This document shows positions 11,050-63,174 of a stretch of DNA of 64,000 nucleotides, one piece after another (the first letter of the stretch is position 1; the number at the start of each line of letters is the position of its first letter). The notes below the pieces were generated by a model. That model was not told the origin of the DNA and did not search any database. It saw only the letters and a program-made list of their open reading frames with translations. The position numbers were made by a program, and so were the translations under genes. Source of the stretch: an uncultured Candidatus Saccharibacteria bacterium (GTDB taxonomy: Bacteria; Patescibacteriota; Saccharimonadia; Saccharimonadales; Saccharimonadaceae); assembly GCA_938018005.1 (NCBI GenBank), contig CALIJG010000020.1, positions 81,063-145,062 on the forward strand, written 5' to 3'.

Positions 11050-11242
11050 GTGCTTTGCTGACGCTTGCAGGACAACTATCTCAGATTATTTTATGGCATA
11101 ATTAGTAGAATATATCTCGTTCTCTTCCTGTTGGTGCATAGCCCTGACCATGTTCGCCTATTTTCGAACAAAATCGTTGTAGAATAGACAGCACTTACCA
11201 CTGTTATTTTACCGTATTATTGCAATATATCATAACAAGTAT

Positions 11243-11266
11243 TGATATATATATATATATATATAT
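11243..11266. repeat. (TA)12 dinucleotide microsatellite in an AT-rich promoter region
   Basis: tatatatatatatatatatatata tract about 75 bp upstream of the 11339 gene. Confidence 0.8.
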
Positions 11267-11338
11267 CAGCTACAATCAAATCGTCATGTTGGTTGAGCCC
11301 AAAAATCTTGGGCTCCCGGAATCCTAGAGGAGGATAAC

Positions 11339-11677
11339 ATGAAGTTCCGGAAGATCGCGTCCTTGGGTGCTACCGCTGCGTTGGCGGTGGGCGGGTTCGT
11401 TTTGAGCTCGCCGGCGAACGCCGCTGACGGCGAGTGGCCGGCGGATATTGAGGAGGCTTGCCGCCTGCAGGGGCACTCCGGTGTCTACAACTTCTTCGGC
11501 GAGCCGTACACATGGACGTGTTACGACATGTCGTACACGTTCCCGTTCGGTGTGTCGTTTGGGTCGGCTGGTAGTGTCGACATCCAGGGCTACTGCAACC
11601 GATTCTACCCCGGTTCCAAGGCCGAGGTAACGAACGCCGCGCTCGCTGAGGGCTGGTCCTGCCTGAAGCTGGACTAG
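11339..11677 (+). CDS. small secreted Cys-containing protein (signal peptide)
   Basis: Strong RBS GGAGGATAAC precedes the ATG. Signal peptide MKFRKIASLGATAALAVGGFVLSSPANA is followed by a mature domain with 6 Cys. Confidence 0.6.
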   Translation: MKFRKIASLGATAALAVGGFVLSSPANAADGEWPADIEEACRLQGHSGVYNFFGEPYTWTCYDMSYTFPFGVSFGSAGSVDIQGYCNRFYPGSKAEVTNAALAEGWSCLKLD

Positions 11678-23326: not shown

Positions 23327-24427
23327 ATGGAGAACCGAATCATGAACCAATCAACCAAACAACCAACCGAAATTTTTGCCGCGTCGATCGCTACCATCCT
23401 TGATGCAGTCGGCGAAGAACACGACCGCGAGCGCGAGATCATCGTGCGCCGCTTTGGCCTCAAAGAGCGCCGCGAAACGCTCGAGCAGATCGGCGAGCTG
23501 CTCGGTATTACGCGCGAGCGTGTCCGCCAGCTCGAGAAAGCCATCGTGGTGCGCCTCAAGCTTGCCGCCGAAGCAGGTGAGCTAGAGGGCCTACACGACG
23601 CCGAGCGTCTCATCATCCGCGACCTCTCCGAGAATGGCCGTGTGGGGCGCGTCTCAGACATCACACAGCGCCTGCTAGACGTTGAGACACCCACAGTGCA
23701 GCAGCGCGCCCACATTGCCTTCATCGGCGAAGTGTCGGCCCGCCTCACCCCCATCAACGAGACCGACAAATACCACCAAGGCCTGGCCATTGCCGAATAC
23801 GGCGATGAGAAGGCGGTGCGAAGCCGTGTAGATGAGATCGTTGCTGCCATCAAGCAGCATGGCGCGCCCATCAGCCTCGAAGCCCTGCATGACCAACTCA
23901 CCTACGAGAACCCTAACCAAGTGCGCGGCCTCGCCAGCCTCTCTACCCAGTTGGCCCACCTCAAAGATATGTGGGGCCTGAGCAAGTGGCCAACCGTTAA
24001 TCCCAAGAATATCCGCGACAAGATCTACGTCGTCCTGCTAGACGAAGGCAAGCCACTACACTTTAGCGAGATTGCTCAGCGCATCAAGGAGAGCACCTTC
24101 AAGCGCCGTAACGTCACCAAGCAAGCCATCCACAACGAGCTCATCAAAGACAAGCGCTTCATCCTCATCGGCCGTGGCATTTATGCGCTCGACATCTGGG
24201 GCTATAGCCAAGGCACCGTGGCTGATATCATTGCTGGTATCTTGCGCGACGAGGGTGGCCCATTGCACCGCGACGAGATCGTCAAGCGCGTCCTCAAGAG
24301 CCGCCAGGTCAAGGAGACCACCATCCTCCTCAACCTCCAAAGCAAACCACTCTTCAAGCGCGTCGCCAAAGCCACCTACGCCCTCGAACCACCCAAGGAG
24401 CAAGCAGAGGCGGTCGCAGCAGCGTAG
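23327..24427 (+). CDS. sigma-70 region-4-like HTH plus repeated HARE-HTH-like winged-helix modules; putative transcription factor
   Basis: LEQIGELLGITRERVRQLEKAIVVRL resembles sigma70 region 4.2. The C-terminal half has two to three modules of the form GKPLHFSEIAQRI...RFILIGRGIYALDIW and GGPLHRDEIVKRV...ATYAL, like the HARE-HTH of the RNAP delta subunit and its relatives. Confidence 0.55.
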   Translation: MENRIMNQSTKQPTEIFAASIATILDAVGEEHDREREIIVRRFGLKERRETLEQIGELLGITRERVRQLEKAIVVRLKLAAEAGELEGLHDAERLIIRDLSENGRVGRVSDITQRLLDVETPTVQQRAHIAFIGEVSARLTPINETDKYHQGLAIAEYGDEKAVRSRVDEIVAAIKQHGAPISLEALHDQLTYENPNQVRGLASLSTQLAHLKDMWGLSKWPTVNPKNIRDKIYVVLLDEGKPLHFSEIAQRIKESTFKRRNVTKQAIHNELIKDKRFILIGRGIYALDIWGYSQGTVADIIAGILRDEGGPLHRDEIVKRVLKSRQVKETTILLNLQSKPLFKRVAKATYALEPPKEQAEAVAAA

Positions 24428-24663
24428 CTCTAGACAAACAATACACCAATAAGAGACGGAGCGATGAGAGCTTCGTCTCTTTTGGTTATAATAGGTATGG
24501 CTACAATAATGGTACGAGGTCTATCCAGGATAATTCATCTCGATAGATGAAGCGCCTGGCAGGGTATTGGCTATTGGTTTTGGTCATAGCAAACGCAGTT
24601 TCTTATTCAATTTTGATATAACAGGTGGAATATATATATATATCATGCTAGAATACTGCCATT

Positions 24664-25401
24664 ATGACAATCTATTCATCTCACACCTACACCGTCACCG
24701 ACCAAGCAGCCCGCTGGAACGCTAATTCCGCAGCACGTCTGCACGAATTAGGATCAAACGACGACCCATCGTATCGGGCGCTCTCGCATCTTATCCTGCA
24801 GAAACTGACCGGATTATTACCGGACGGTCATGGTAGCGTACTTGATGTTGGCTGTGGCATTGGGTTTTTGTCCAGCCATATTGCATCACTTGGTTTTACG
24901 GTAGTTGGAATTGATCCAGCTGATCAAGGTATTGAGATTGCTTCCACAACGCATACACAGCCTCATCTTCAATTTGAAGCCACGTCTCTTGAAGACTATG
25001 CCTACAACCATCCCAACGCTTCCTTTGATGCACTCGTGGCAAATATGGTGTTGCATTGTGTGCCTAACCATTATTCATTCTTTGCTGCAGCAGCTCGGCT
25101 TCTTGCGGCTGACGGTGCGTTTATAGCAACATTGCCCAACCCAGATACCTATCTGCCAGGAAGAAGCGATGTAGATGTATCTGACTATAACATGCAAACA
25201 TCTTACGTCTTTGAAATCCCGTTTCGGATTCATGGCAAGGACGCGCATCCAGAGCGAGTTCTTTTCTTTCATCGGCCAATGAAGGAATATATTGCTGCGG
25301 CTACGGAGGCAGGATTAGCGGTGTCGGATTTCTCGGTGCCTGAGCAAATTGGTGTTGGGCGAGCCAAACGCATCTCAGTGCTCATCCTCACAAAAGCATA
25401 A
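24664..25401 (+). CDS. class I SAM-dependent methyltransferase
   Basis: Motif I VLDVGCGIGFLS and a Rossmann-like core. An (AT)n tract is embedded in its promoter (24628-24645). Confidence 0.75.
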   Translation: MTIYSSHTYTVTDQAARWNANSAARLHELGSNDDPSYRALSHLILQKLTGLLPDGHGSVLDVGCGIGFLSSHIASLGFTVVGIDPADQGIEIASTTHTQPHLQFEATSLEDYAYNHPNASFDALVANMVLHCVPNHYSFFAAAARLLAADGAFIATLPNPDTYLPGRSDVDVSDYNMQTSYVFEIPFRIHGKDAHPERVLFFHRPMKEYIAAATEAGLAVSDFSVPEQIGVGRAKRISVLILTKA

Positions 25402-39852: not shown

Positions 39853-41397
39853 TTATTCCTCCCGATTATTATGACTACGTGAACGACTGCGTGATGCGAC
39901 TGCTGGTCGGCGTGGCGGTGTAATCACCCCGCTAGAGCGTGCCGCTGACCCTGGTGTAGATGGTGGCATTTGGGGTGTTTGGGGTGGCGTTGGCGGCGTC
40001 GGTTTGGGTGGTACTGCTGGCGTAGAGCGCGCAGAGCGCGGCGATGATGATGTAGCTTGCGCCTGCGCGGTAGCTGGCTTAGCACTCGGCTTCTTGCGCG
40101 CTGGTACAGACGGCAGTGGCTCGATAGGCCGCTCTGCCTGTTTCTTCTGCTGCTGCAATACGCGAGCAAACCATAGCGCACTGGGGCGCGGTGTCCGCTT
40201 GTACGTCTTGTAGTCGACCGCAAAGAGGCCAAAGCGCGGCCAAAACCCTTTATCCCACTCGAAGTTATCAAGGAAGCTCCAGTGCATATATCCCAGCAGC
40301 TCTACCCCACTACCAAGAGCGCGCTGCATAGCCAGGATAGACTGAGTGAGCCATTGCTTGCGGAACTGGTCGCGCTCGTCAGCCACACCGTTCTCTGTCA
40401 CGAGCAGCGGTAGCTTATAGCGGCCCCAGAGACGCCCTAGTGCAAGCTCGAGATGATCGGGCTGCATTGTCCAGCCGAGATCGTTTGGCGTGGTCTCGGG
40501 GTTGTGGATGCGGTAGCCATAGATACGATTGCTAAAGTAATAATTGACGGCGATGTAATCACTCTGCCGCACCACCTTGCGCAGGAAATAATCATCCTGG
40601 AAGAACTGCACCACCCGCGCTGTCGCTCGGCTCAGCCAGGCGTCATCACCCGGGTAGGTGTAGGCCGAGTTTTTGGCCACCGCCACCTTGAAGCGCCGGC
40701 TCTTGGCGTGGAGGACCTTAGCCACTTGGTTGTGTGCATAGGCAAGATTGCTCAGCACGCGGTAGGTTTGCCACTTGCTGCGGACGTTGGGTGGCCAGGT
40801 GCCATTGTAGTAGCTCTCGGTCACGTAGACGCAGGGCTCATTGACGGTAATGACATAGCGCACCGTTGCACCAATCTCATCCATCAGTTTATCGACAAAG
40901 CGCACAAAATACTTCACATTATCGCGCTTCGCAAAGCCCCCCTGGGCAGCAAACCATACCGGCAGCGTGAAGTGAAACAGTGTCACGACTGGCTCCAGCC
41001 CAGCATCGGCCAGCGCGGCCAAGTATGCCTTGTAGTATTTGATCGCCTCGGCATTCCACGCGCCCTCTTCTGGCTCGATGCGCGACCACTCCACACTAAA
41101 GCGCCACGAGGTGAGGCCCATCTTCTTGGCCAGGGCGAAGTCTTGTGCGTAAAGCTCGGCGTGGTTGGCAGCTTTGCCCGAGATATAATTGTTTGGATCT
41201 TTGGCGGCACTGGCAATGTGCGGCCAGTTGGGCAAGTCGCCATATTGATATTGGCTCTGAGCAGCGAGGGTCTTGGCCTGAGCTTTTTCCCACTCCGACC
41301 ACTGGTTGTGCATACCACCCTCGACCTGATGCGCGCTCGTCGCAGCGCCCCAGAGGAAATGTTTTGGAAATTGCACCGTAGATTGTTGCTTAGCCAT
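39853..41397 (-). CDS. glycoside hydrolase family 1 beta-glucosidase with ~100-aa Pro/Ala/Ser-rich C-terminal tail
   Basis: GH1 N-terminal signature FLWGAATSAHQVEGG and nucleophile motif LLVTENGVAD. Confidence 0.85.
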   Translation of the reverse strand: MAKQQSTVQFPKHFLWGAATSAHQVEGGMHNQWSEWEKAQAKTLAAQSQYQYGDLPNWPHIASAAKDPNNYISGKAANHAELYAQDFALAKKMGLTSWRFSVEWSRIEPEEGAWNAEAIKYYKAYLAALADAGLEPVVTLFHFTLPVWFAAQGGFAKRDNVKYFVRFVDKLMDEIGATVRYVITVNEPCVYVTESYYNGTWPPNVRSKWQTYRVLSNLAYAHNQVAKVLHAKSRRFKVAVAKNSAYTYPGDDAWLSRATARVVQFFQDDYFLRKVVRQSDYIAVNYYFSNRIYGYRIHNPETTPNDLGWTMQPDHLELALGRLWGRYKLPLLVTENGVADERDQFRKQWLTQSILAMQRALGSGVELLGYMHWSFLDNFEWDKGFWPRFGLFAVDYKTYKRTPRPSALWFARVLQQQKKQAERPIEPLPSVPARKKPSAKPATAQAQATSSSPRSARSTPAVPPKPTPPTPPQTPQMPPSTPGSAARSSGVITPPRRPAVASRSRSRSHNNREE

Positions 41398-41507
41398 AAT
41401 GCTTATTGTACCATCAGTAGAGGATTAAGAAAAATAGAATTATTGGGTGGAAGTATGATCTCTCTTTGTTTGCGCTCGCTCCACCTTCCCATCACTTCAT
41501 CCGATGG

Positions 41508-41643: not shown

Positions 41644-42759
41644 CTACTCCGGCAGTTGCTCATTCTCGCGCAGGATTTTCTTGCCGCGCATTTCGTATTT
41701 GACACCGGTCAGGTCGCTCGTGACGTAGTCATCGTTGAGGAGATTAACAAAAACGGCTGCATCCTTGGCATCCATGATAATGATACTCCCTGCCGCGTCG
41801 TCCGTCATCAGGCCCAGGCCCATTTCATCAGCGTGGTCAATGAGTTGGTCTTGTGTCACTTGGGCAGGATCGAGCTTTTGCAGTTTAGTCACCAGCGCTG
41901 GTGTGTCGCGCACCAGGCGGTCGAGCGTGAGTCCCTCAGGCAAGGTAAGTTTGAACTGCTGAGTGATGGCAGCGATCTTTTCCTCTGCCACAGCATGCTT
42001 TTTGGCATCGTAGCCAAAAAGCCGGACAAATTTGCTCTCGCTAAAGGCAAAGATATCGTTGCCGACGATTAATACTTGATTATCCGGCGTGATGCGCAGA
42101 CCAGCATCAGCCACAAATGGCTGGAATGACCCACCGCTGTACATCCAGGCGGTTGCTCCCTTGAGCACCTGCGACTGGGGCAGCAGCTTGGCCACAAAGA
42201 ATGGCTCGCCATCTGTGCCCATCCGGAAGCGCGCAATGATACCCTTAACCTTCTTAAACTCATGGTCACCCTCGTTGAAGGTCTCAAGATCTGCCTCGCT
42301 GTAAGTGATCTGCTCGATGACTTCTTGAGCGTGCACTACCCGGTCGAGTGTGGTGCGCTCGAGAACATTCTCCTCAGCCTTGGCCGCCTCAAAGTCGCGC
42401 ACCATCAGGCCAGTCGCTGCACCCGTCTGCACCGCTGTGATCATATCGTAGAGGAAGAGCACCTTGAGCTGCGCCTTGAGCTCAGCTGCATAGTTGGTGG
42501 CATACACTGTATAGCCCTTGGTGAAGAGAAAGAGATCCACCTCTAACTGGTCTTTGTCGCGATCGGCTTGATTGGCCCAGAGGAAGATGTCGGTAGCATC
42601 GGTAGATGTGCCAGCCGTAGACTGTGCGGTAGTATCTGTTGGCTGAGCCTCGGCATAAGCAGCTACATCTGCGTCACTCTGCGGCACAGCAGCTGACTCT
42701 GGTGACGTTACTGGGGTGATATCGGTGGTGGGGGTTTGTGTGTTTGGTTCGTTATGCAT
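41644..42759 (-). CDS. hypothetical protein, third gene of the AAA+ operon (N-terminal Thr/Ala-rich region plus ~300-aa globular part)
   Basis: 371-aa ORF lying 54 nt after the preceding gene. No confidently recognisable domain; mixed alpha/beta composition. Confidence 0.5.
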   Translation of the reverse strand: MHNEPNTQTPTTDITPVTSPESAAVPQSDADVAAYAEAQPTDTTAQSTAGTSTDATDIFLWANQADRDKDQLEVDLFLFTKGYTVYATNYAAELKAQLKVLFLYDMITAVQTGAATGLMVRDFEAAKAEENVLERTTLDRVVHAQEVIEQITYSEADLETFNEGDHEFKKVKGIIARFRMGTDGEPFFVAKLLPQSQVLKGATAWMYSGGSFQPFVADAGLRITPDNQVLIVGNDIFAFSESKFVRLFGYDAKKHAVAEEKIAAITQQFKLTLPEGLTLDRLVRDTPALVTKLQKLDPAQVTQDQLIDHADEMGLGLMTDDAAGSIIIMDAKDAAVFVNLLNDDYVTSDLTGVKYEMRGKKILRENEQLPE

Positions 42760-42813
42760 GGTTTCTAGTGTACTATATTTAGGGTGTAAAGCCTATTGCT
42801 ACATCCAGTAGTG

Positions 42814-43713
42814 TTACCGCTCGTCGCTTGCTGGCCCATGCCCCAGCGTCTCCAGTGTGCGGTCAACCACCTTTTGGGCAAAGCGCTGCACATCACTATC
42901 ACTGTGTAGGTCGAGCCCCTCACCTTGGTCGATGAGAAAGCTGTGTGGCGGGAGATCTGAAACCATGCAGATTGGCCAACCATAGCTTCGCCCCCTCATA
43001 AACCCCATAGCGTGGCGTATGTTATTTGGCTCATGTTCCTTGAGGGCAAATACCCCGCGGCGCAAGAATGCTGGGTGTGCCAAGCAAAATGCCGCTGTGT
43101 CGATATCCAGATATTCCCCGGGCTGCACCACTGGTATCTGATATTCGACGCCACGGATATATCTATCATCTTCTTCTGTAGACTCAACCATCGTGAGGCC
43201 AAGCGAGTACCCCTCAGTACGCAATGCCTCGATCGCCGCATACAGTGCCCCACCACGCTGCATAATTCGCTCGGACGAAACTCTGCTAGACATCGATGCA
43301 TTAACATACATCATTGCCTGCTTCCCATGAGTATCCTGGCGCACTTGATAATCTACCATATGCTCGGGCTCACCGTGTAGGTAAGCGCCAATATCTACCT
43401 CATCACCAGCGAAATCTAGCCGAGACTCTACAATTGGTCGCCGCCCCACTAGCTGATCTATAGCCACACGTCCCACTACTTGGCGCAAGCGCTGGCGGCC
43501 CTCTTCCCAGCCATAGCGCGCTAACTCGAGCGCCTCATCCATCGTCCTTGTGCCCGACCACCGCTCCTCATCTGTCCTCAGGCTCGCTGCTCCGAGGTCA
43601 GACTGCTCTTGCTGCTCGGGCGCATGCTGCATCGCATCAATCATTTCGCCAATGCTATCGAGCTGACGAAAGTGCATCGTACGACCGTCATACTCTTGCT
43701 CAGAGCGACGCAT
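42814..43713 (-). CDS. hypothetical protein, second gene of the AAA+ operon (possible degenerate vWA-like fold)
   Basis: Start is immediately adjacent to the ATPase stop, suggesting translational coupling. The segment MMYVNASMSS...GGALYAAIEALRTEGYSLGLTMV weakly resembles the vWA beta1-MIDAS/alpha1/beta2 region. This is inference only. Confidence 0.5.
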   Translation of the reverse strand: MRRSEQEYDGRTMHFRQLDSIGEMIDAMQHAPEQQEQSDLGAASLRTDEERWSGTRTMDEALELARYGWEEGRQRLRQVVGRVAIDQLVGRRPIVESRLDFAGDEVDIGAYLHGEPEHMVDYQVRQDTHGKQAMMYVNASMSSRVSSERIMQRGGALYAAIEALRTEGYSLGLTMVESTEEDDRYIRGVEYQIPVVQPGEYLDIDTAAFCLAHPAFLRRGVFALKEHEPNNIRHAMGFMRGRSYGWPICMVSDLPPHSFLIDQGEGLDLHSDSDVQRFAQKVVDRTLETLGHGPASDER

Positions 43714-45393
43714 CTAGTGACTCCTCGGCCGCTTACCACCCACGTCGGGGTGCTGCCTCAGCCAATTACACAGGGTAAATCGCCCAGGAACAAAACCGTG
43801 GCAGGCTTCAAATTGCTTGGCGTAATCCTGGACGTCATGGTCGTTCAATTGCGAAAAGTGGTCTTTCACAAACTCTATTCGGTCATGTACTTCCGTCTTG
43901 ATGTGGTCATTATCATTATCCTCTGTTTCCCATTGTGTGATGTCCCCACGGTCGCGCTGCCAACGCCGATCCTCTACATTGACTGCAGCAACTATATCTG
44001 AGACAAGGACCTTTTTTGTCGTCCAAATTTCGGGGTCTCCAAAGACCCGCCCTACTGCCCTGGATATTGTTGGCGTTTGCGATATGTCCGTTAGCTCACG
44101 CGAATGCATCGATTCCAAGTCCCAACACACTCGGACAAATATACTAGTCTCGTAGTTGCTCGTGTCTAATTTATTGATATTATAACAGTCTGGTAAGAAA
44201 CGACGTATAGAACTATCAAGAGATCTCTCAAGCCATCGTGTATTCGTTCTATCGATAGTAATTTCTTTATCCTCCGGTGGTGTAAACCACTCACTATCGT
44301 CTTTCTTTTCAGTATCTTTTGGCTGAGTTTCTTGAGATGACTTACTGTGAGATTCATCAAGCTCTTTGCCTTTCGTAGCTTCGCGAGTCTTGTAGTCAAG
44401 CGCCTCCTGCACCCTCGGCATCAACCGCTTGGCATTCTCAGCTAGCTTCTCGCGGTCATGCTCCTTCATACCCTTATAGAGGAGCATCTCGCCCAGCCAG
44501 TCCTTACCGACGCCTAACTCAGCTAGGCGTACACCATACAGGCTAGCACGCTGGCTAATGATAGCGCGGATACCAAGCTCGCCCAGTGCCTGGCGGTGCG
44601 CTCGCACCGTAGCCAGCCACTCTTTGGGGCTAGGTACCTCACCAGCCGAGATGTCGAGTGGCGAGCGGTTTATCTCCGTGCCAAGTATCAGCGCGTCCTC
44701 CAAATATTCATCAGTGTCCATTGGGATGAAGGCAAAGCGGTCGATGGTGGCTGCATCGATCGGTGCCCGGCCCACATACTCACTCGTTGCTCCGCGGCCA
44801 ATCGTGTTGGCACTGGCGATGAAGCGCGCCGTCTCGTGGCGTGGCACTCTGCTATCCGGGAACTCACCATGGCCATTGGCAAGCGCACTGTTGAGGATAG
44901 TCAAAATACTTGCGCTACCATTATCGATCTCATCAAACATAAAGACACCACCATTCTCATACACCTCACGGTAGGCTGTGTTATGGTAGTTACCCGTTGC
45001 ATCGCGATAGCCCATAAGGTCGGACTTGGATGTCGTTGGCCCGAGCGATATAGAGCGAAATGGCAAGCCAAGGCTATCTGCCGCTTGCTCACCAGCAGTC
45101 GACTTGCCACTCCCTGCCTCACCATGCAGCCAGATAGGTACATCTGCCTGCAAGGCTGCGCGCACGAGGGGCGTGTGGTAATGCGACGGTTTGGCTCTGT
45201 TAACAAACTGCTGCAATGCAGGGTATTCCTGCTGCCGTGTTGTATGATCCAGCGCGAGGATCGTCCGCAGTGCGTTCACAACCTCCTCGCTCGTCCCTTG
45301 GTGTAGTTGCTCCACAACCTGGCGCGCTTCGCTCAAGTCTGCAGCCACCCCCCGGTGTGCTGCTTCGATATCGTGCAGCGTTTTGCCGCTCAT
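43714..45393 (-). CDS. MoxR-like (AAA_5-type) AAA+ ATPase with long acidic C-terminal extension
   Basis: Walker A LHGEAGSGKST, Walker B VFMFDEID, sensor-1 FIASANT, Arg near IDRFAF. A C-terminal ~250 aa is acidic and of unknown function. The annotated ATG 45393 has no SD, whereas the RBS-equipped ATG 45502 is out of frame. See the SSR feature. Confidence 0.7.
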   Translation of the reverse strand: MSGKTLHDIEAAHRGVAADLSEARQVVEQLHQGTSEEVVNALRTILALDHTTRQQEYPALQQFVNRAKPSHYHTPLVRAALQADVPIWLHGEAGSGKSTAGEQAADSLGLPFRSISLGPTTSKSDLMGYRDATGNYHNTAYREVYENGGVFMFDEIDNGSASILTILNSALANGHGEFPDSRVPRHETARFIASANTIGRGATSEYVGRAPIDAATIDRFAFIPMDTDEYLEDALILGTEINRSPLDISAGEVPSPKEWLATVRAHRQALGELGIRAIISQRASLYGVRLAELGVGKDWLGEMLLYKGMKEHDREKLAENAKRLMPRVQEALDYKTREATKGKELDESHSKSSQETQPKDTEKKDDSEWFTPPEDKEITIDRTNTRWLERSLDSSIRRFLPDCYNINKLDTSNYETSIFVRVCWDLESMHSRELTDISQTPTISRAVGRVFGDPEIWTTKKVLVSDIVAAVNVEDRRWQRDRGDITQWETEDNDNDHIKTEVHDRIEFVKDHFSQLNDHDVQDYAKQFEACHGFVPGRFTLCNWLRQHPDVGGKRPRSH

Positions 45394-45454
45394 CAGGTTA
45401 CTCAGCGACTGGAGCGAAATCTCACCACTCCCTGCAGTATCTGCAGTGGCTTGC

Positions 45455-45502
45455 TCAGCGCTGCCTGTTAAGGCTCTCTCTCTCTCTCTCTGAATTTGCC
45501 AT
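45455..45502 (-). other. 15-codon uORF (MANSERERESLNRQR*) starting at an RBS-equipped ATG and running through the (GA)8 tract
   Basis: RBS AAGGAG lies 5 nt before ATG 45502. The frame terminates at TGA with 8 GA units. With 9 units the frame continues into the AAA+ ORF. Confidence 0.5.
45475..45490. repeat. (TC)8/(GA)8 dinucleotide SSR between promoter/RBS/ATG and the AAA+ ATPase ORF (candidate phase-variation switch)
   Basis: tctctctctctctctc. The repeat count sets the reading frame between ATG 45502 and the ATPase ORF; they are currently out of frame by one nucleotide. Confidence 0.8.
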
Positions 45503-45530
45503 ATTTTCTCCTTATTGTCTAGATTACTTT

Positions 45531-45560
45531 ATTGTAAGAGATATAGAGGAGATTTGTCAA
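45531..45560 (-). promoter_or_regulatory. sigma70-like promoter TTGACA-N18-TACAAT driving the AAA+ operon
   Basis: Minus-strand sense reads TTGACAAATCTCCTCTATATCTCTTACAAT, about 25-30 bp upstream of the RBS/ATG. Confidence 0.5.
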
Positions 45561-45599
45561 TTAGTAAACTATGGGAACTACTGAGAGGTTTGCAACGCT

Positions 45600-45638
45600 A
45601 GTATAAAAAATGAACGTATTATAAGAACATTCATTTTT
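45600..45638 (-). terminator. intrinsic terminator after the helicase gene (possibly bidirectional)
   Basis: AAAAATGAA-cgtattataagaaca-TTCATTTTT hairpin whose 3' half runs into a U-tract on the minus strand. Lies 58 bp after the helicase stop. Confidence 0.5.
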
Positions 45639-45695
45639 GTTTACTATAATCATTGAGAAGCATGAAACGACCCCAGACTTTGGGATAGCAATGCG

Positions 45696-47221
45696 CTACT
45701 GCACTGCATCCTCGCCAAAATGCTTTTGCAGTCGCATTTTTATCGAGCCTTCGTGCCGGCCGAGGGTGCGGCTGAGCTGGTGGATACTTACGCCTTGGAC
45801 GAAGGCCTGCTTGAGCGTCTCATCGTCGACTTTTGTCCATGGTTTGTAGGCGTTGGGGTGGGTCTGGCGCATTGTGGCAATCTTGGCCGCCCAGCTAGTG
45901 CTACCAGTTTTACTCGTCGGCTTCTTCTGCGGCATCGCAGCACGCTGAGCAGCCTGTTCGCGCAGATGTGCAAAGCGCTCGGCATCTTGGGCGGCACGAG
46001 TGCGCAGCTGCGTGTCAATGATATACGCTTCATCGCTCATGGTAAGTGCCATCCGATTGATACCAGTGAGATATATATTATCTAGACTTTTGACGCGGCT
46101 CAGTGCTACATAGCCCATACCCGGAACAAAGGCTTTGCGTAGGTCGATGCGTGCGCTATCGAGCGTCATCCCCTGACTCTTGTGCACAGTAATCGCCCAA
46201 GCCAGGCGCAGTGGCAGCTGCGAGATACTGGCCCGCTTGCGCGTACCATCGCGCAGCTCCCAGGTATCGGGCTGCATTGTCACCACATGGCCATTACGAA
46301 ACTCCACCACAGGATAGTCTGTGCCTGGCTCGAAGTCTGCTACCAGGCCAATACTCCCATTGGCAAAGCGCCGTGCTTGGTCGTTCTTGATGGCCATCAC
46401 CAGTGCACTCCGCTTGAGCACTAGCACTTCTGGTGCAAGAATGCTCCGCTGGAGCGTGTCAACATAATTTTGCCCACCAGTGCTGCTGCGCTGGTACAAC
46501 ACTTCATCGCCAGGCAGCTCAGCGAGGCGGGCTTGGTTGATCCGATCGACGTCGATATTGACGGTGTGGAGCTCAGTCAGGTCGCTCTCGTGAGGTGGCT
46601 CTACCTCTGTGCGAGCTAGTAATTGCTCGGCGTGGCGTCGGCGCAGATCACCAGCTCGCATGGCAGTCAGGATATCGAGCAGAGCGTCGCCCTCTTGCTG
46701 GCGGTATTGCTGGTCGAGGTAGAGGATGGCTGGGTCGAGCTCACGCCAGGCTTGCGACTGCACTACAAAGCTCCCCTGCCGCCCACCATTGCGATTAATT
46801 GGCGGTAGCTGAAAGAAATCCCCACTCATCACTACCTGCAATCCGCCAAAAGGCTGATTCGGCATCTCGCGCACGCGGCGGCACACTTCGTCGATCATAT
46901 CCAGACGGTAGTCGTGCAGCATACTAATCTCATCGATGATGAGTACATCTGTTTTGGCAATGATATCGCGCCGCGTCTTCGACAGGTGATCAAAAAAATT
47001 GTTCGGCAAGCTATCGTGGATGCCAATCCCCGCCCATGCGTGAATCGTGCTGCCGCCCAGGTGCGTCGCCGCAAGCCCCGTCGTGGCGGTGACGGACACA
47101 TACTTGCCGTCCGCCTTGCACTGGCGGATGAACTGCCCCAGCACATGCGTCTTGCCCGTGCCCGCCGGGCCTGTCAGCAGCGCACTCTGGCCACTGCGCA
47201 AAATCTCCTGTGCAAGTGTCT
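45696..47221 (-). CDS. SF1 PIF1/RecD-like ATP-dependent DNA helicase with C-terminal HTH-like tail
   Basis: Walker A LLTGPAGTGKTHVL, Walker B VLIIDEISML, SF1 C-terminal domain motif VHKSQGMTLD, and a C-terminal ~90 aa basic helix-rich tail. Start at MDQTLAQ; the longer ORF reaches 47309. Confidence 0.8.
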
Positions 47222-47383
47222 GATCCATAGGTTCTAGTATACAAGGTTGTGGGGTGAGAGGCAAAGTATGCGTATACCCTCTATAGAGGCAGCTCTTAGA
47301 GAGGCGCAACGAAGTGAAAGTAGAAAAAATAGTATAAAATGTATATGCTCACATTCTACCAGTGAGAGCTCAGCCTCGCCACT

Positions 47384-57944: not shown

Positions 57945-58249
57945 ACACCCTCCTTTGTGTTAGGTTGTTGTGCCTCTAGTATACCCCACTATCCTCTGTT
58001 GTAATAGCCCAAAAGACCACCCCTTATTACCCCATCTCTGTAGCAGTGTAAAAACCACATCGTACTGTGGAAATCGCGTGGATAACTGCCCACACTGCGA
58101 GAATATACAGTGCTCTCTCGCCCTGGCAAAAATATGCATTATGCAGCGAGTCTTGCAAGATTATGGGCCTAACCCCTTGCAAAAAACTAACCATAAGCGT
58201 TATAATCATGCTCATAACGTTTTTAGACAAAAACAGGGGGGACAAAACG

Positions 58250-60937
58250 GTGGTAAAAAAAGCAATTATAGTGCTTGTGGTGCTGAGTGGTGCTGCGCTG
58301 CTTGCACTTCTCTATCACAGCACAACGCATGCCGACCAATGGGGTATGGTGTGGCACGACGAGTTTACTGGCTCGGCTGTGTCTGGCGAGTGGGACATAC
58401 TGAAGCAAAATACTGACAACTTACGCAATACCCACCTCGCCTACAGCCCAAATAATCTTAAGGTTGCCAACAGCCATCTCGAGATCACCACGCAGCGCCA
58501 CTGCGTGAGCAATTTGAACGAGCCGCTCACCAGTGCCAACATGAGTGAGCAGCCCTGCCCCAGCGGCACCACAACGCGCTACCTTAGTGGACGGGTCAAA
58601 AACAAGGGCAAGGTTGTGGACGGCACCAAGCCATTCCGAGCCGAGATTCGGGCGAAGTTTAATTGGAATGGCAAGCGTGGTACACGGCCATCGCTGTGGA
58701 TGGTGAGTGGCAATACGCTCCAAAACTGCAACGACAACCCCAAGGCCAACGACCCATACGGCGAGCTAGACATCATCGAGTGGTACTCATCCACACCAAA
58801 TTACGCGTGGTCCACCACACACATGTCGTGCTACCACCACGGTGTCGATGCCAAATGGAAGACTGGCTGGCGAACGCGTGCCCTATCGCACAGTGGCGAG
58901 CACTATGCTGGTGCGCGGCCAGGCTCGTTTGCCTACGAGTGGCACACCTGGGCAGTTGAGTATGATGGTACGACGGTCAAGTACTTTGTAGACGACCAAC
59001 CCATCAAGGTATATCGCTACCATGTGAGCCCTACCGACGATGGCAACATCTTCCCTAGAAAGGATGCCGAACCACTGACGAAGGTCGCCAGCCAGGAGAA
59101 TATTAATGGTGCATTTCACCGCGGCTGGCAATTCATCCTCAACGACTACGTCGAGATTAGCAAAAATCTCAGCCCTATTGACCCATCTGAGCCATTCCCC
59201 ACACAGACGATGCTGATCGACTATGTGCGCGTCTTCCAAAAGGGTGCGGGTACGCAGCCACCCGAGACGCCAGTGCCAGCAACCGGCACGAAATGGGCTA
59301 AGCATGATGCTGCAGGCGACCGCAAATGGTCGGCCCTTGCCAGCTCGGCTGATGGGAGCAAGCTTGCTGCCGCTGCCTGGGGTGGCACAATCCACACCTC
59401 GCAAGACGGCGGTGCGACGTGGACGGAGCAGCCAAAGTCGGAAGTGCGCAACTGGGTAAGCATTGCGAGCTCGGCTGATGGGAGCAAGCTTGCGGCACTC
59501 TACGATTGGGGTGGCTACATCATGACATCGCAAGACGGTGGTGCAACGTGGCACAAGCATGCGATGAGCGGGACGATCAACTGGATGTCGATCGCGAGCT
59601 CGGCTGATGGGAGCAAGCTCGTAGCCGTCGCCAAGGATCACACTATCTACACCTCGCGCGATGGCGGTGCGACGTGGACGGAGCAACCAAAGTCGGGCAG
59701 CCGCAAATGGCGCGCCGTCACAAGCTCGGCCGATGGCAATAAACTAGCTGCAGTCGTCGAAGACGGTGGCATCTACACCTCTTCGAACGGTGGTGTGACG
59801 TGGACGGAACGCGCCCAAGCTGGCAACCGCACCTGGACATCAATTGCCAGCTCGCCCGACGGCACAAAGCTGGTCGCAACAGCCGCTGGTGGCTATATCT
59901 ATACTTCAGCCGACGGTGGCGTGACGTGGACGGAGCGCAGCGTGGACGGCCGGCACAACTGGACAGCAGCAACCATCTCGGCCGATGGCAACACCCTCGC
60001 CGCAACAGCCGGTGGCGGTGGCTATATCTACGTATCGACCGACGGCGGTGCAACGTGGATAGCTCAGACGTCGCCTGGCATGCCCAACTGGTCGGCTCTT
60101 GCCAGCTCGGCTGATGGGAGCAAGCTGATAGCTGCTGCCTACGGTGGCATGATATATACCACCACTCCACCGGTAGATGATCGCACACTGGCCGCTGCCG
60201 AAGCTGCTGTGGCCCGAGCCGAAGCCAGCAAGAGCCCTGCAGATATTGCTGCTGCTCAAGCCCGCATTGCCGCCGTCAAGGATGCACGCAAACAAGCCGC
60301 TCTCCAGGCTCGGCTAAACGCCATCACATCAGCTCCATCCATAACAACACCCAAGCAGCCCACACAACCGACCAACTCAACTACAATCCCTCAGCCACAC
60401 GGCGGTGCGGTATCGCTCGCTACGGCCGGCAAACCGTGCAGCCACATTGCCTCAGCCGAGCCAGCAACCGCCCCCGCGCAGTACCAAGGCCGGGTTCTGC
60501 GCAACAGCGTACGCTTCACCATCACCTGTGCTGGGCAGACCGCTCACACTGGCTACACCACCCATGTAGCACTCACACTCAGCAAGCACTACCGCGACCC
60601 AAGCCGCCTCACCGTGCTCAAACTTGCCAAAGGTGGCTCGGTCATCGAAGATATCACAGGCCGGATCAACTTTGGCACAAACCCCAGTGGTACACGCACA
60701 ACCATCGCTTACGACGTAACTGACGGTGGCTTTGGCGACGAAGACGGCGCTGCCAATGGCACAATCCTCGACCCCATCGCCATCTACGAAGACACGTCGC
60801 ACACCGACTCTACCAGCAACTCATCGCGCCCTAGTGGCCTCCTTGCCAACACTGGCGACAGCCTCCTCCCCACCGCCCTCGGCGCAATTGCCCTAGGTGG
60901 TGGCGGGGTGTGGATGCTCCGCAGGCGGCGCTCGTAG
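58250..60937 (+). CDS. LAxTG-anchored surface protein: GH16 glycoside hydrolase domain plus ~8 BNR/Asp-box (Ycf48-like) repeats plus C-terminal sorting signal
   Basis: GTG start follows RBS AGGGGGGA, with signal peptide VKKAIIVLVVLSGAALLALLYHSTTHA. GH16 catalytic motif ELDIIEW. Repeated SxDGGxTW motifs. C-terminus is LANTGDS, then a hydrophobic stretch, then RRRRS (class E sortase-type LAxTG signal). Confidence 0.75.
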   Translation: MVKKAIIVLVVLSGAALLALLYHSTTHADQWGMVWHDEFTGSAVSGEWDILKQNTDNLRNTHLAYSPNNLKVANSHLEITTQRHCVSNLNEPLTSANMSEQPCPSGTTTRYLSGRVKNKGKVVDGTKPFRAEIRAKFNWNGKRGTRPSLWMVSGNTLQNCNDNPKANDPYGELDIIEWYSSTPNYAWSTTHMSCYHHGVDAKWKTGWRTRALSHSGEHYAGARPGSFAYEWHTWAVEYDGTTVKYFVDDQPIKVYRYHVSPTDDGNIFPRKDAEPLTKVASQENINGAFHRGWQFILNDYVEISKNLSPIDPSEPFPTQTMLIDYVRVFQKGAGTQPPETPVPATGTKWAKHDAAGDRKWSALASSADGSKLAAAAWGGTIHTSQDGGATWTEQPKSEVRNWVSIASSADGSKLAALYDWGGYIMTSQDGGATWHKHAMSGTINWMSIASSADGSKLVAVAKDHTIYTSRDGGATWTEQPKSGSRKWRAVTSSADGNKLAAVVEDGGIYTSSNGGVTWTERAQAGNRTWTSIASSPDGTKLVATAAGGYIYTSADGGVTWTERSVDGRHNWTAATISADGNTLAATAGGGGYIYVSTDGGATWIAQTSPGMPNWSALASSADGSKLIAAAYGGMIYTTTPPVDDRTLAAAEAAVARAEASKSPADIAAAQARIAAVKDARKQAALQARLNAITSAPSITTPKQPTQPTNSTTIPQPHGGAVSLATAGKPCSHIASAEPATAPAQYQGRVLRNSVRFTITCAGQTAHTGYTTHVALTLSKHYRDPSRLTVLKLAKGGSVIEDITGRINFGTNPSGTRTTIAYDVTDGGFGDEDGAANGTILDPIAIYEDTSHTDSTSNSSRPSGLLANTGDSLLPTALGAIALGGGGVWMLRRRRS

Positions 60938-61601: not shown

Positions 61602-63050
61602 CTAGTTCTTGCGGCTCTTGACGAACCAGAAGCTCCCGGCGCCAAGACCGCTGGCTGCGAGGGCAGCGACGAGCCATACGCTGTCACCGGTGTCGGCGAG
61701 AGCTGGACCTTCGTGCTTAGCAGGAGCGGCAGCCTCTGCTGCTGGTTTAGCTGCAGGTGCTGGGTTGGCTGCTGGTGCTTGCTCTGCAGCTGGAGCCGGC
61801 TCTTCTGCTGGTGCAGGTTCTACAGCTGGCTCAGCTGGGGCTGGATTTGCCGGAGCTGGGGTTGCGGGCGCAGGTGTGGCCGGAGCGGGTGTAGCAGGCG
61901 CAGGATTGGCAGGCGCTGGATTAGCGGGAGCCGGGTTGGCTGGGGCAGGATTTGCTGGAGCTGGGTTGGCTGGTGCAGGATTTGCAGGGGCCGGGTTAGC
62001 CGGAGCTGGCTGCACAACTGGCTTGTCTTTAGCTGTTGCTGTGTTGATGTTGCCGCCGTTGAGTGCTGCAGCGAGGTTAGCACCGTCGTTCGACATAACA
62101 ACAGCCGACCACGCACCGGTAGCAGCGCTGTCATTCTCCATCCAGGTTGCACCACCGTCATCTGAAGTGTAGATCTTGCCACCATTGACGGTTGCAGCAA
62201 GCTTCATACCATCAGCCGAGCTAGCGATTGATGTCCACTTCTGTGGGGTTGATGCAGCTTGCTCTTTCCAAGTAACACCGCCATCTGTCGAGGTGTGAAT
62301 CTTGCCACCATTGACGGTTGCAGCAAGCTTCATACCATCGGCCGAGCTAGCGATCGATGTCCACTTCTGAGTGCCAGCAGCGGCTTGCTCTGTCCAGGTG
62401 ACACCACTGTCTGTCGAGGTGTAGACAACGCCGTCGGCAACAGTCGCGGCAAGCTTGGTGCCATCAGCCGAGCCGGCGATCGATGTCCACTTCTTCGCAC
62501 CTGGGTTGGCTTGCTCTTTCCAGCTTGCGCCAGAGTTGGTAGAGGTAAATACCCCACGGTTGGTTGCCACAGCAGCGAGCTTGGTGCCATCGGCCGAGCT
62601 CGTCACAGACACCCAGTCACCAGCAGCTCCTGGGAGACCATTTTTCGTCCAGGTAGCACCTGAGTCATTCGAGGTGTACATGTAGCCGCCCCATTGGTAA
62701 AAGGCAGCGATCTTACTACCATCGGCTGAACTGGCAAGAGCCGTCCACTTTTGCGGCGCAGGAAGGCCGGTTATTGGTCGTTCCATCCAGGTGACACCAC
62801 TGTCTGTCGAGGTGTAGACATTCCCGACATTCACTGCTGCAACGAGCTTGGTGCCGTCTGTTGAGCCAGCCATTGCCGACCAGTTCTTTACACCAGAGCC
62901 AGCTTGCTCCTTCCAAGCTACCTCTTGGGCAGCCCGTGTAGGCTGGCCAAACAATGCCACCATAGCAGCTACCGCCACCAGGCACCCAGCCTGAGACACG
63001 CGAGCGAGCGTTCTCCATTTATTATGTTTTGCTTGCCTGAGTTCCCTCAT
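61602..63050 (-). CDS. LAxTG-anchored surface protein with BNR/Asp-box repeats and (PANPA)n tandem repeat
   Basis: RBS AAGGAGGG precedes the ATG. Signal peptide. Seven SxDxGxTW repeats. (PAPAN)n then PAPAT repeats. C-terminus is LADTGDS, hydrophobic stretch, then KSRKN. Confidence 0.7.
   Translation of the reverse strand: MRELRQAKHNKWRTLARVSQAGCLVAVAAMVALFGQPTRAAQEVAWKEQAGSGVKNWSAMAGSTDGTKLVAAVNVGNVYTSTDSGVTWMERPITGLPAPQKWTALASSADGSKIAAFYQWGGYMYTSNDSGATWTKNGLPGAAGDWVSVTSSADGTKLAAVATNRGVFTSTNSGASWKEQANPGAKKWTSIAGSADGTKLAATVADGVVYTSTDSGVTWTEQAAAGTQKWTSIASSADGMKLAATVNGGKIHTSTDGGVTWKEQAASTPQKWTSIASSADGMKLAATVNGGKIYTSDDGGATWMENDSAATGAWSAVVMSNDGANLAAALNGGNINTATAKDKPVVQPAPANPAPANPAPANPAPANPAPANPAPANPAPANPAPATPAPATPAPATPAPANPAPAEPAVEPAPAEEPAPAAEQAPAANPAPAAKPAAEAAAPAKHEGPALADTGDSVWLVAALAASGLGAGSFWFVKSRKN
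61841..62010. repeat. 15-bp-period tandem DNA repeat encoding the PANPA pentapeptide array
   Basis: About 11 units of GC(A/C)GG(A/G)TT(G/A)GC(A/C)GG-like sequence. Confidence 0.7.
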
Positions 63051-63174
63051 GCAATAACCCTCCTTTTCTGTTGTGAAACACAACACCTTAATATAACGTT
63101 CGCATTATAACACTATTGTGCTTATGGTAACAAGGGGTAATCAAGCGGTGATCGGCAGTATATTTCGCTACGTG

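Follow-up and report, generated by a model that had tools for sequence, protein, structure and literature searches.

Organization of the locus

The window, by which we mean the whole 64-kb stretch of an uncultured Candidatus Saccharibacteria genome analyzed here (coordinates are window positions unless another locus is named), encodes an AAA+ ATPase whose first codons carry a dinucleotide repeat, and this repeat and its probable effect on translation of the ATPase are our subject. All features of the ATPase operon lie on the minus strand. The gene order SAM (S-adenosylmethionine) synthetase, PIF1 helicase, ATPase, DUF7192, KwaB-like, GH1 constitutes a chromosomal locus conserved among relatives that are 90–97% identical at the DNA level. 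A sigma-70-type promoter at 45531..45560 (TTGACA 45560-45555, an 18-nt spacer, and TACAAT 45536-45531) matches 11 of 12 consensus positions in a promoter scan and is kept in all related loci. The Shine–Dalgarno (SD) sequence AAGGAG at 45508..45513 is identical in all related loci and stands 5 nt before ATG 45502, exactly as described in an earlier reading of the bare sequence, here called the original prediction.

The frame opened by this ATG (45502-45500; leader frame 45455..45502) runs for 15 codons (MANSERERESLNRQR) to a TGA at 45457-45455, also as predicted, and the same leader peptide is found in other loci with nine repeat units. Leader codons 4–10 are covered by a perfect (AG)9 tract of 18 nt at 45474..45491, equivalent to (CT)9 on the plus strand, according to Tandem Repeats Finder (TRF). 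The tract had originally been given as (GA)8; the repeat is real but the unit count was not, since (GA)8 results when this tract is read with the phase shifted by one base. The number of (AG)7 or longer tracts expected by chance is 0.00 (100 dinucleotide-preserving shuffles of the window), and besides (AG)9 the whole 64 kb has just two other dinucleotide repeats that reach six units.

The open reading frame (ORF) of the ATPase (43714..45393, 559 aa) begins at ATG 45393, hereafter Met38, which lies 109 nt 3' of ATG 45502 in a different frame and lacks an SD, in agreement with the original prediction. Met38 is 62–77 nt past the leader stop. The ATPase frame is open from just 5' of the repeat to 45393 with no ATG, GTG, or TTG start inside, and the 80 nt from tract to Met38 (45394..45473; the Met38 segment) code in this frame for ALTGSAEQATADTAGSGEISLQSLSNL, which is translated only from alleles that join ATG 45502 to the ATPase. 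Where n is the number of AG units, this fusion occurs at n = 7 or 10 (n mod 3 = 1), giving 594 or 596 aa (ON), and alleles with n = 6, 8, or 9 are out of frame (OFF). Alleles with n = 8 encode MANPEREREP followed by TAA directly after the tract (a 10-aa peptide), and those with n = 6 and n = 9 encode peptides of 11–15 aa.

The window allele, n = 9, is therefore OFF and one unit short of ON (n = 10). One added unit does join ATG 45502 to the ATPase as had been claimed (MANSERERERALTG..., 596 aa), with three rather than four Glu-Arg (ER) pairs, but the frame is likewise restored when two units are lost, and the resulting n = 7 is the commonest ON allele in nature. The claim that ATG 45502 is the only SD-equipped start of the operon was wrong: the DUF7192 gene has its own, GAGGAG-N7-ATG.

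Upstream of the promoter, an inverted-repeat search found a hairpin at 45606..45638 (strand unassigned) with a 12-bp stem, a 9-nt loop, and A/T runs on both sides. It is likely the terminator of the PIF1/Dda-like helicase gene that precedes it (45696-47309, minus strand), which would make the ATPase operon a separate transcription unit. An Rfam E-value search of 45250-45750 returned only a sub-threshold mir-84 match on this terminator hairpin (19 bits vs 60). We considered an RNA element at the switch site and rejected it, the sole match being a chance one below threshold.

Repeat length among related loci

Close homologs come from metagenome-assembled genomes (MAGs) of uncultured Candidatus Saccharibacteria (TM7) and from human oral metagenomes, on contigs of ~0.9–1.0 Mb, and we compared about 40 related loci in all. 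An unbiased set of 29 loci comprises 14 GTDB species representatives, 14 usable metagenome loci, and the window. Out-of-frame alleles in this set have n = 8 (13 loci), n = 6 (two loci), or n = 9 (two loci), nine loci have n = 7 and are in frame, and three have an interrupted tract, two of them in frame and one out, for a total of 11 in-frame and 18 out-of-frame loci. The value n = 10 was found in P0003 and L040. No indel or stop occurs in the 80 nt after the tract in any of the 24 loci keeping the Met38 segment; near the start, these loci vary in length only in the tract.

Repeat number is scattered on a neighbor-joining tree of the 2.2-kb flank. Homoplasy is evident in three sister pairs with no differences in this flank and unlike n, namely the window (n = 9) and L001 (n = 8), L012 (n = 8) and L020 (n = 7), and L017 (n = 8) and L018 (n = 7). 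Over 7,687 nt, all that separates locus L038 (n = 7, ON) from the window (n = 9, OFF) is a single mismatch besides the 4-nt gap in the tract. L033, 99.8% identical to the window, has n = 8, and contigs encoding the window's exact 559-aa protein have n = 6, 8, or 9. L001 is identical to L032 across 6,891 nt save for n = 8 versus n = 6. Because near-identical contigs (L038 and the window, L001 and L032) differ in n, the mutation rate of the tract must far exceed that of point substitution, with changes in both directions. The L001 and L032 contigs (993,099 and 993,090 bp) are probably one population assembled twice, a pairing that hints at switching within a population.

The ON fusions of the window's exact protein were predicted in advance and then sought by exact-sequence look-up in public assemblies. 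The n = 7 fusion (594 aa) is present on six contigs and the n = 10 fusion (596 aa) on two, the n = 4 (592 aa) and n = 13 (598 aa) fusions are absent from these assemblies, and the OFF form from Met38 (559 aa) is present on 26 contigs. Contig DNA of the predicted ON forms confirms their repeat counts. The advance prediction is thus confirmed, and ON and OFF alleles occur on the same genetic background.

The original prediction allowed that its repeat count might be a sequencing or assembly miscount, in which case the gene would always be in frame. Repeats are classic sites of indel error, and L001 and L032, possibly a single population, are two units apart. Nevertheless, this explanation is hardly credible: n = 9 recurs independently in L023, L034, and L035, n = 8 was recovered in 13 of the 29 unbiased loci by different studies and assemblers, each count recurs in independent assemblies, and the OFF product is encoded on 26 contigs. 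Moreover, assembly k-mers exceed the 18 nt of the tract, which also fits well within one Illumina read, so the assembled lengths should exist in the reads. The slipped-strand ON/OFF switch that had been proposed is, by contrast, supported by these comparisons: repeat number and frame vary among related genomes (n = 6–10), near-identical genomes differ only at the tract, and the in-frame alleles start at the SD-equipped ATG.

True start and selection on the coding sequence

Orthologs with 88–94% identity fall into two groups, one of 594–596 aa starting MANPERER(ER)ALTGS... and one of 558–560 aa starting at Met38 (MSGKT...). More distant orthologs keep residues upstream of Met38, have Leu or Val in place of Met38, and start further upstream (the segments compared around Met38 were SLQSLSNLMSGKTL vs SLDSLAGLLTGKTL and AVIQLLNGETL); the leader region is kept as protein in distant orthologs P0023 and P0024. 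Within the SLQSLSNL stretch all substitutions but one are synonymous (TCG/TCA, CTG/CTT/TTG, AGT/AGC), the exception being a Ser-to-Gly change in a few loci, and the 27 leader codons upstream of Met38 have a ratio of nonsynonymous to synonymous substitution rates (dN/dS) of 0.19. Protein-level selection on this stretch implies translation from ATG 45502 with the tract in frame. Together, the orthologs and the protein-like evolution of the leader place the true start at ATG 45502, upstream of Met38.

One lineage (L011, L014, L025, L026, and L028) has an in-frame loss of 64 aa, corresponding to window positions ~45245-45433, that removes the N-terminal helical region together with Met38. The SD-ATG-tract start is kept in this lineage, and the next in-frame ATG comes only after the Walker A motif. 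Out-of-frame members exist here as well: L011 has n = 8, and in L028 the tract is interrupted and has undergone a G4-to-G5 shift. L014 and L028 differ in this tract (AGAGAAGGGGAGAG) by G4 versus G5, one being in frame and one out, and by two other mismatches in 7.5 kb.

Downstream of the tract, an ORF of 522–589 codons is intact with no other frameshift in 38 of 38 loci. The dN/dS of the ATPase is 0.233 between OFF loci, 0.218 between ON loci, and 0.235 between ON and OFF loci, and by region it is 0.06 in the AAA core and 0.47 in the C-terminal domain. Purifying selection acts on the downstream ORF with equal strength whether a genome is ON or OFF. These values bear on the possibility that the frameshift is an irreversible step of genome reduction and the ATPase a pseudogene. 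Saccharibacteria do have reduced genomes, and DUF7192 is missing from the related locus L053, but a decaying gene is very improbable in view of the intact ORFs, the equal OFF–OFF and ON–ON ratios, the strongly constrained AAA core, and the alternation of ON and OFF among sister genomes.

Age of the tract

At L053, where the genomic context is unchanged, the ATPase ortholog has 63% identity, starts ATGTCAAATTC(AG)7, and is in frame. In this locus (L053 2501-5365) the ATPase is followed after ~300 nt by the KwaB-like gene, with no DUF7192 called between them. L052 and L051 belong to a clade with ~47% identity and another context (RNase J, ATPase, DUF7192, FtsK), and both start ATGTCAAATTC(AG)6. 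L052 is in frame (MSNSERESSYQ...) and L051 is out of frame (MSNSERERLLE then stop).

The tract, ATG, and SD are thus conserved down to 47% protein identity. That a pure dinucleotide tract has been held over such a distance points to selection for mutability, since no repeat is needed to encode Glu-Arg. The tract has decayed or is interrupted in other clades (MLNS[DG]RDINN, MANPEKGR), and these look like locked alleles.

A probable translational phase-variation switch

On the strength of these sequence comparisons we consider it highly probable that (AG)n is a hypermutable translational phase-variation switch, that is a contingency locus, inside codons 4–10 of the ATPase. The characters of such loci found here are a perfect repeat in the 5' coding sequence downstream of a functional start codon; a polymorphic n (6–10), with pairs that have 0–1 mismatches in 2.2–7.7 kb differing only at the tract; and in-frame as well as out-of-frame alleles (ON-7, ON-10, and OFF of an identical protein) with an intact ORF under selection. 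Slipped-strand mispairing during replication would add or remove AG units. At n = 7 or 10, ribosomes from the SD-equipped ATG 45502 would continue into the ATPase, and the two ON proteins would be alike except for one extra Glu-Arg pair in the disordered N-terminal tail of the longer. Ribosomes would halt at the TAA right after the tract at n = 8, releasing a 10-aa peptide, and 11–15 codons in at n = 6 or 9. Switching would be reversible within a clone and of high frequency. OFF alleles would yield little or no ATPase because Met38 lacks an SD, and with the ATPase OFF, the abutting DUF7192 gene (stop/start TAGATG) would lose translational coupling or suffer polarity.

Full-length protein could in principle be made from all alleles by programmed ribosomal frameshifting or transcriptional slippage. 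This too is very unlikely. The site lacks both a slippery heptamer and a stimulatory structure, Rfam gives no genuine match in it, and n = 8 alleles have a TAA immediately after the tract; moreover, known transcriptional slippage needs long homopolymers.

The completeness of OFF is the weakest step of the proposed switch, and expression may leak. Several observations weigh against a complete switch. In the AlphaFold2 (AF2) model of the ON protein, residues 1–26 are disordered and only a short helix (29–36) precedes Met38, so a Met38-initiated product would keep all folded domains. The in-frame share is 11 of 29 loci, and 8 of 34 contigs for the window's allele, which is close to the one-third that a neutral frame predicts. 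Met38 is conserved throughout this clade, being present in every locus that keeps the segment. Finally, several neighboring genes lack an SD, among them the KwaB-like and GH1 genes, which makes initiation at Met38 possible and OFF potentially leaky.

The same observations favor a neutral hypermutable leader, in which the ATPase is always translated from Met38 and the repeat encodes a dispensable peptide or disordered tail, so that its length would matter little for ATPase activity. We regard this as unlikely. Met38 has no SD and lies past the leader stop, and the codons before it evolve as protein, which requires translation from ATG 45502. Distant orthologs carry Leu or Val at the Met38 position, and the deletion lineage, with neither Met38 nor any in-frame ATG before Walker A, has retained the SD-ATG-tract start and has out-of-frame alleles. 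Conservation of tract, ATG, and SD to 47% protein identity is likewise at odds with a dispensable leader.

The ATPase–DUF7192 module and its neighbors

In the ATPase, a disordered linker joins a MoxR/CobS-class AAA_5 core to a helical C-terminal domain that evolves fast. Matches include Pfam AAA_5 (4.3e-12, above the gathering score), PHROG 249 (1e-45), and CobS in the PDB (8e-9), and Foldseek searches with the core returned CbbQ (2e-10) and NorQ (1e-9) as well as Rea1 and RavA. The Walker A sequence GEAGSGKS and the FMFDEID motif are invariant. The protein is accordingly a MoxR/CobS-class AAA+ ATPase (Pfam AAA_5) with Walker A and B motifs and a MoxR-type fold. CobS proper was rejected, as the TIGR01650 score is 33 bits against a cut-off of 558.55 and the neighbors are DUF7192, KwaB-like, GH1, and PIF1 helicase genes. 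The C-terminal domain has no match among PDB sequences up to E = 5. A standalone 297-aa paralog of this domain (DDSEWFTPP ... QFEQIHGFVP..NWLSQHPDVG) occurs between the DUF7192 and KwaB-like genes in L004 (6757-7650) and also in L003, L006, L007, and L009; the window lacks it, the insertion point being at ~42800-42831.

The DUF7192 gene (42814..43713, minus strand, 299 aa) has its SD, GAGGAG, at 43726-43721, and its ATG abuts the ATPase stop (TAGATG). The model of the protein predicts a divergent vWA/MIDAS-like fold, closest to the Midasin MIDAS and NorD vWA domains, and together the two proteins look like a MoxR-AAA+/vWA-type remodeling pair. NCBIfam has nothing for DUF7192, for the C-terminal-domain paralog, or for a 112-aa protein encoded elsewhere in the window (see below), and a literature search found no paper mentioning DUF7192.

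The same two families are adjacent, as PHROG 249 and PHROG 1909, in Listeria phage A511 (L030 2980-4828, gp158-gp159) and Tunturiibacter phage Tunturi_4 (L031 2410-4635, gp88-gp87), and the pair is common in phages (Herelleviridae, mycobacteriophages, and others). Judged by sequence, the CobS-like ATPase and DUF7192 form a conserved two-gene module in unrelated phages, and the annotation of PHROG 249 as "porphyrin biosynthesis" is probably wrong.

The KwaB-like (DUF4868) gene (41644..42759, minus strand) lies 54 nt downstream of DUF7192 and matches KwaB in Pfam (6e-11) and PADLOC (2e-12); in NCBIfam the KwaB score is 51 bits against a cut-off of 200. Given its absence from distant ATPase–DUF7192 loci, it probably does not belong to the conserved switched module; in L051 and L052 the module lies between RNase J and FtsK. 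We considered the Kiwa anti-phage system and set it aside, since the KwaB-like protein falls below the cut-off, the gene upstream encodes the soluble DUF7192 protein, and no neighbor matches KwaA. Nor does the module correspond to a catalogued defense system in PADLOC-DB 2.0, where the ATPase has only a marginal IetA match (E 0.006, 14 bits) and DUF7192 has none. The "defense-like" label of the original prediction therefore lacks direct backing, the pair being typical of phages, and a defense role for the module is speculative.

The KwaB-like start (42759-42780, minus strand) has no SD. The GH1 gene (41397-41420, minus strand) likewise lacks an SD and has TACAAT 7 nt before its ATG, hence possibly a leaderless or near-leaderless mRNA. 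Translation in this genome may often begin without an SD. Between the SAM synthetase and PIF1-like helicase genes lies a strain-variable slot (~47266-47383), with a 237-aa or a 175-aa ORF without Pfam matches elsewhere (L032 414-1127 and L040 699-1226); the window has neither. L032 has n = 6.

Comparison with known systems

Repeat-slippage phase variation is a hallmark of host-adapted small-genome bacteria such as Helicobacter, Neisseria, Haemophilus, and Mycoplasma. By analogy, the mechanism proposed here is that of contingency loci broadly, and it is well established in H. pylori, where oipA, sabA, and hopZ carry 5' CT repeats. A paper on Helicobacter pylori oipA (PMC10564699) describes a CT repeat count that sets the frame, with ON and OFF alleles among strains. 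The Saccharibacteria locus resembles oipA, and also sabA and hopZ, in having a CT/AG tract a few codons past the start that would be switched by slipped-strand mispairing. The H. pylori targets, however, are outer-membrane adhesins with the tract in the signal-peptide region, whereas here the target is a cytoplasmic MoxR/CobS-class AAA+ ATPase of a Saccharibacteria epibiont, and the tract encodes (Glu-Arg)n in a disordered tail. For H. pylori there are measured switching rates; the Saccharibacteria switch is proposed from sequence comparison.

Phase-variable restriction-modification and Pgl/BREX genes, for example pglX of Streptomyces coelicolor with its G tract, use repeat-length frameshifts to toggle costly intracellular systems. 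The ATPase locus is similar in that an intracellular, potentially costly system would be toggled by repeat length in a coding sequence. It differs in that restriction-modification and Pgl/BREX are established defense systems, switched mostly by homopolymers or tetra- and pentanucleotides (for Pgl context see PMC4365076), whereas ATPase and DUF7192 have no significant PADLOC match.

The module itself resembles the CbbQ–CbbO, NorQ–NorD, RavA–ViaA, and CobS–CobT pairs in its MoxR-class ATPase core and in the translational juxtaposition of the two genes, and the DUF7192 model comes nearest to the vWA domain of NorD and the MIDAS domain of Midasin. It also shares with the phage PHROG 249 and PHROG 1909 pair both families, their order, and their adjacency. 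The phage copies are shorter (~340–425 aa) and lack the C-terminal domain, whereas the Saccharibacteria pair is a conserved chromosomal locus of one clade.

A full-text literature search found, within the searchable library, no paper linking Saccharibacteria or Patescibacteria with simple sequence repeat (SSR) or slipped-strand phase variation. One paper on the Candidate Phyla Radiation (CPR) touches on phase variation, describing an in-frame 9-mer array in a surface protein of Gracilibacteria. With a switch of the kind proposed here, ultrasmall epibionts may create diversity within their populations by chance, a point of relevance to their coexistence with host bacteria and phages in the mouth. 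It would also follow that biological states, and not errors, lie behind many gene calls in TM7 MAGs that look "truncated" or "split"; gene callers began the ATPase at Met38, or at a GTG codon in the out-of-frame L051. The locus provides a natural ON/OFF series for probing the function of the CobS-like ATPase and DUF7192.

Other repeats in the window

Each of the three dinucleotide repeats in the window that reach six units varies between strains. An (AT)11 tract at 11245-11266 (plus strand) fills the spacer between TTGATA (-35-like, 11242-11247) and TACAAT (-10-like, 11271-11276), upstream of an ORF (11339-11677, plus strand) that has a strong SD and encodes a 112-aa protein whose N-terminus resembles a signal peptide. 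Ten contigs encoding an identical 112-aa protein have n = 5, 5, 6, 6, 7, 7, 7, 8, 9, and 10, with spacers of 11–21 nt; the window, with n = 11, has a spacer of 23 nt, and only n = 8 gives 17 nt. Going by its position, the tract looks like a promoter-spacer switch for phase variation or volume control. The promoter spacer of Haemophilus influenzae hifA/hifB, from the -35 to the -10 hexamer, holds (TA)n, and its length follows from the repeat number. The tract at 11245 is likewise a dinucleotide repeat between -35 and -10, but, unlike in hifA/hifB, the gene that follows encodes a secreted-looking 112-aa protein, and a switch is suggested by comparing sequences.

The third repeat, (AT)7 at 24630-24643 (plus strand), lies just before a TAGAAT -10-like hexamer and ATG 24664, which opens an ORF that corresponds to a small class I methyltransferase in related contigs. 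The tract has n = 5 in L055, n = 6 in L057, and n = 7 in the window. No exact-sequence record was found for the 245-aa ORF (24664-25401), and its start is probably called differently elsewhere. Downstream of the sigma-factor-like gene at 23327-24427, different strains carry different genes.

Repeat-based switching may be a general habit of this clade. We propose tentatively that human-oral Saccharibacteria run a multi-locus SSR phasome, made up of the (AG)n in the 5' coding sequence of the ATPase and the (AT)n tracts before the secreted-looking protein and the methyltransferase. In this proposal, which we hold to be possible rather than probable, the AAA+/vWA-like module under (AG)n control, with its phage counterparts and its fast-evolving C-terminal domain, would serve in conflict, either with phages or with the host bacterium, and, being costly, would be toggled stochastically by the epibiont. 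If true, the phasome would give the CPR its first described set of contingency loci, and it would offer a functional handle on a widespread uncharacterized phage gene pair.

Long imperfect tandem repeats are also present at 59337-59696 and 61740-62494, with periods of 129 nt and of 15/18/30/45/75/126 nt. They sit in large ORFs at 58067-60937 (plus strand) and 61602-63086 (minus strand), which probably encode repetitive surface proteins.

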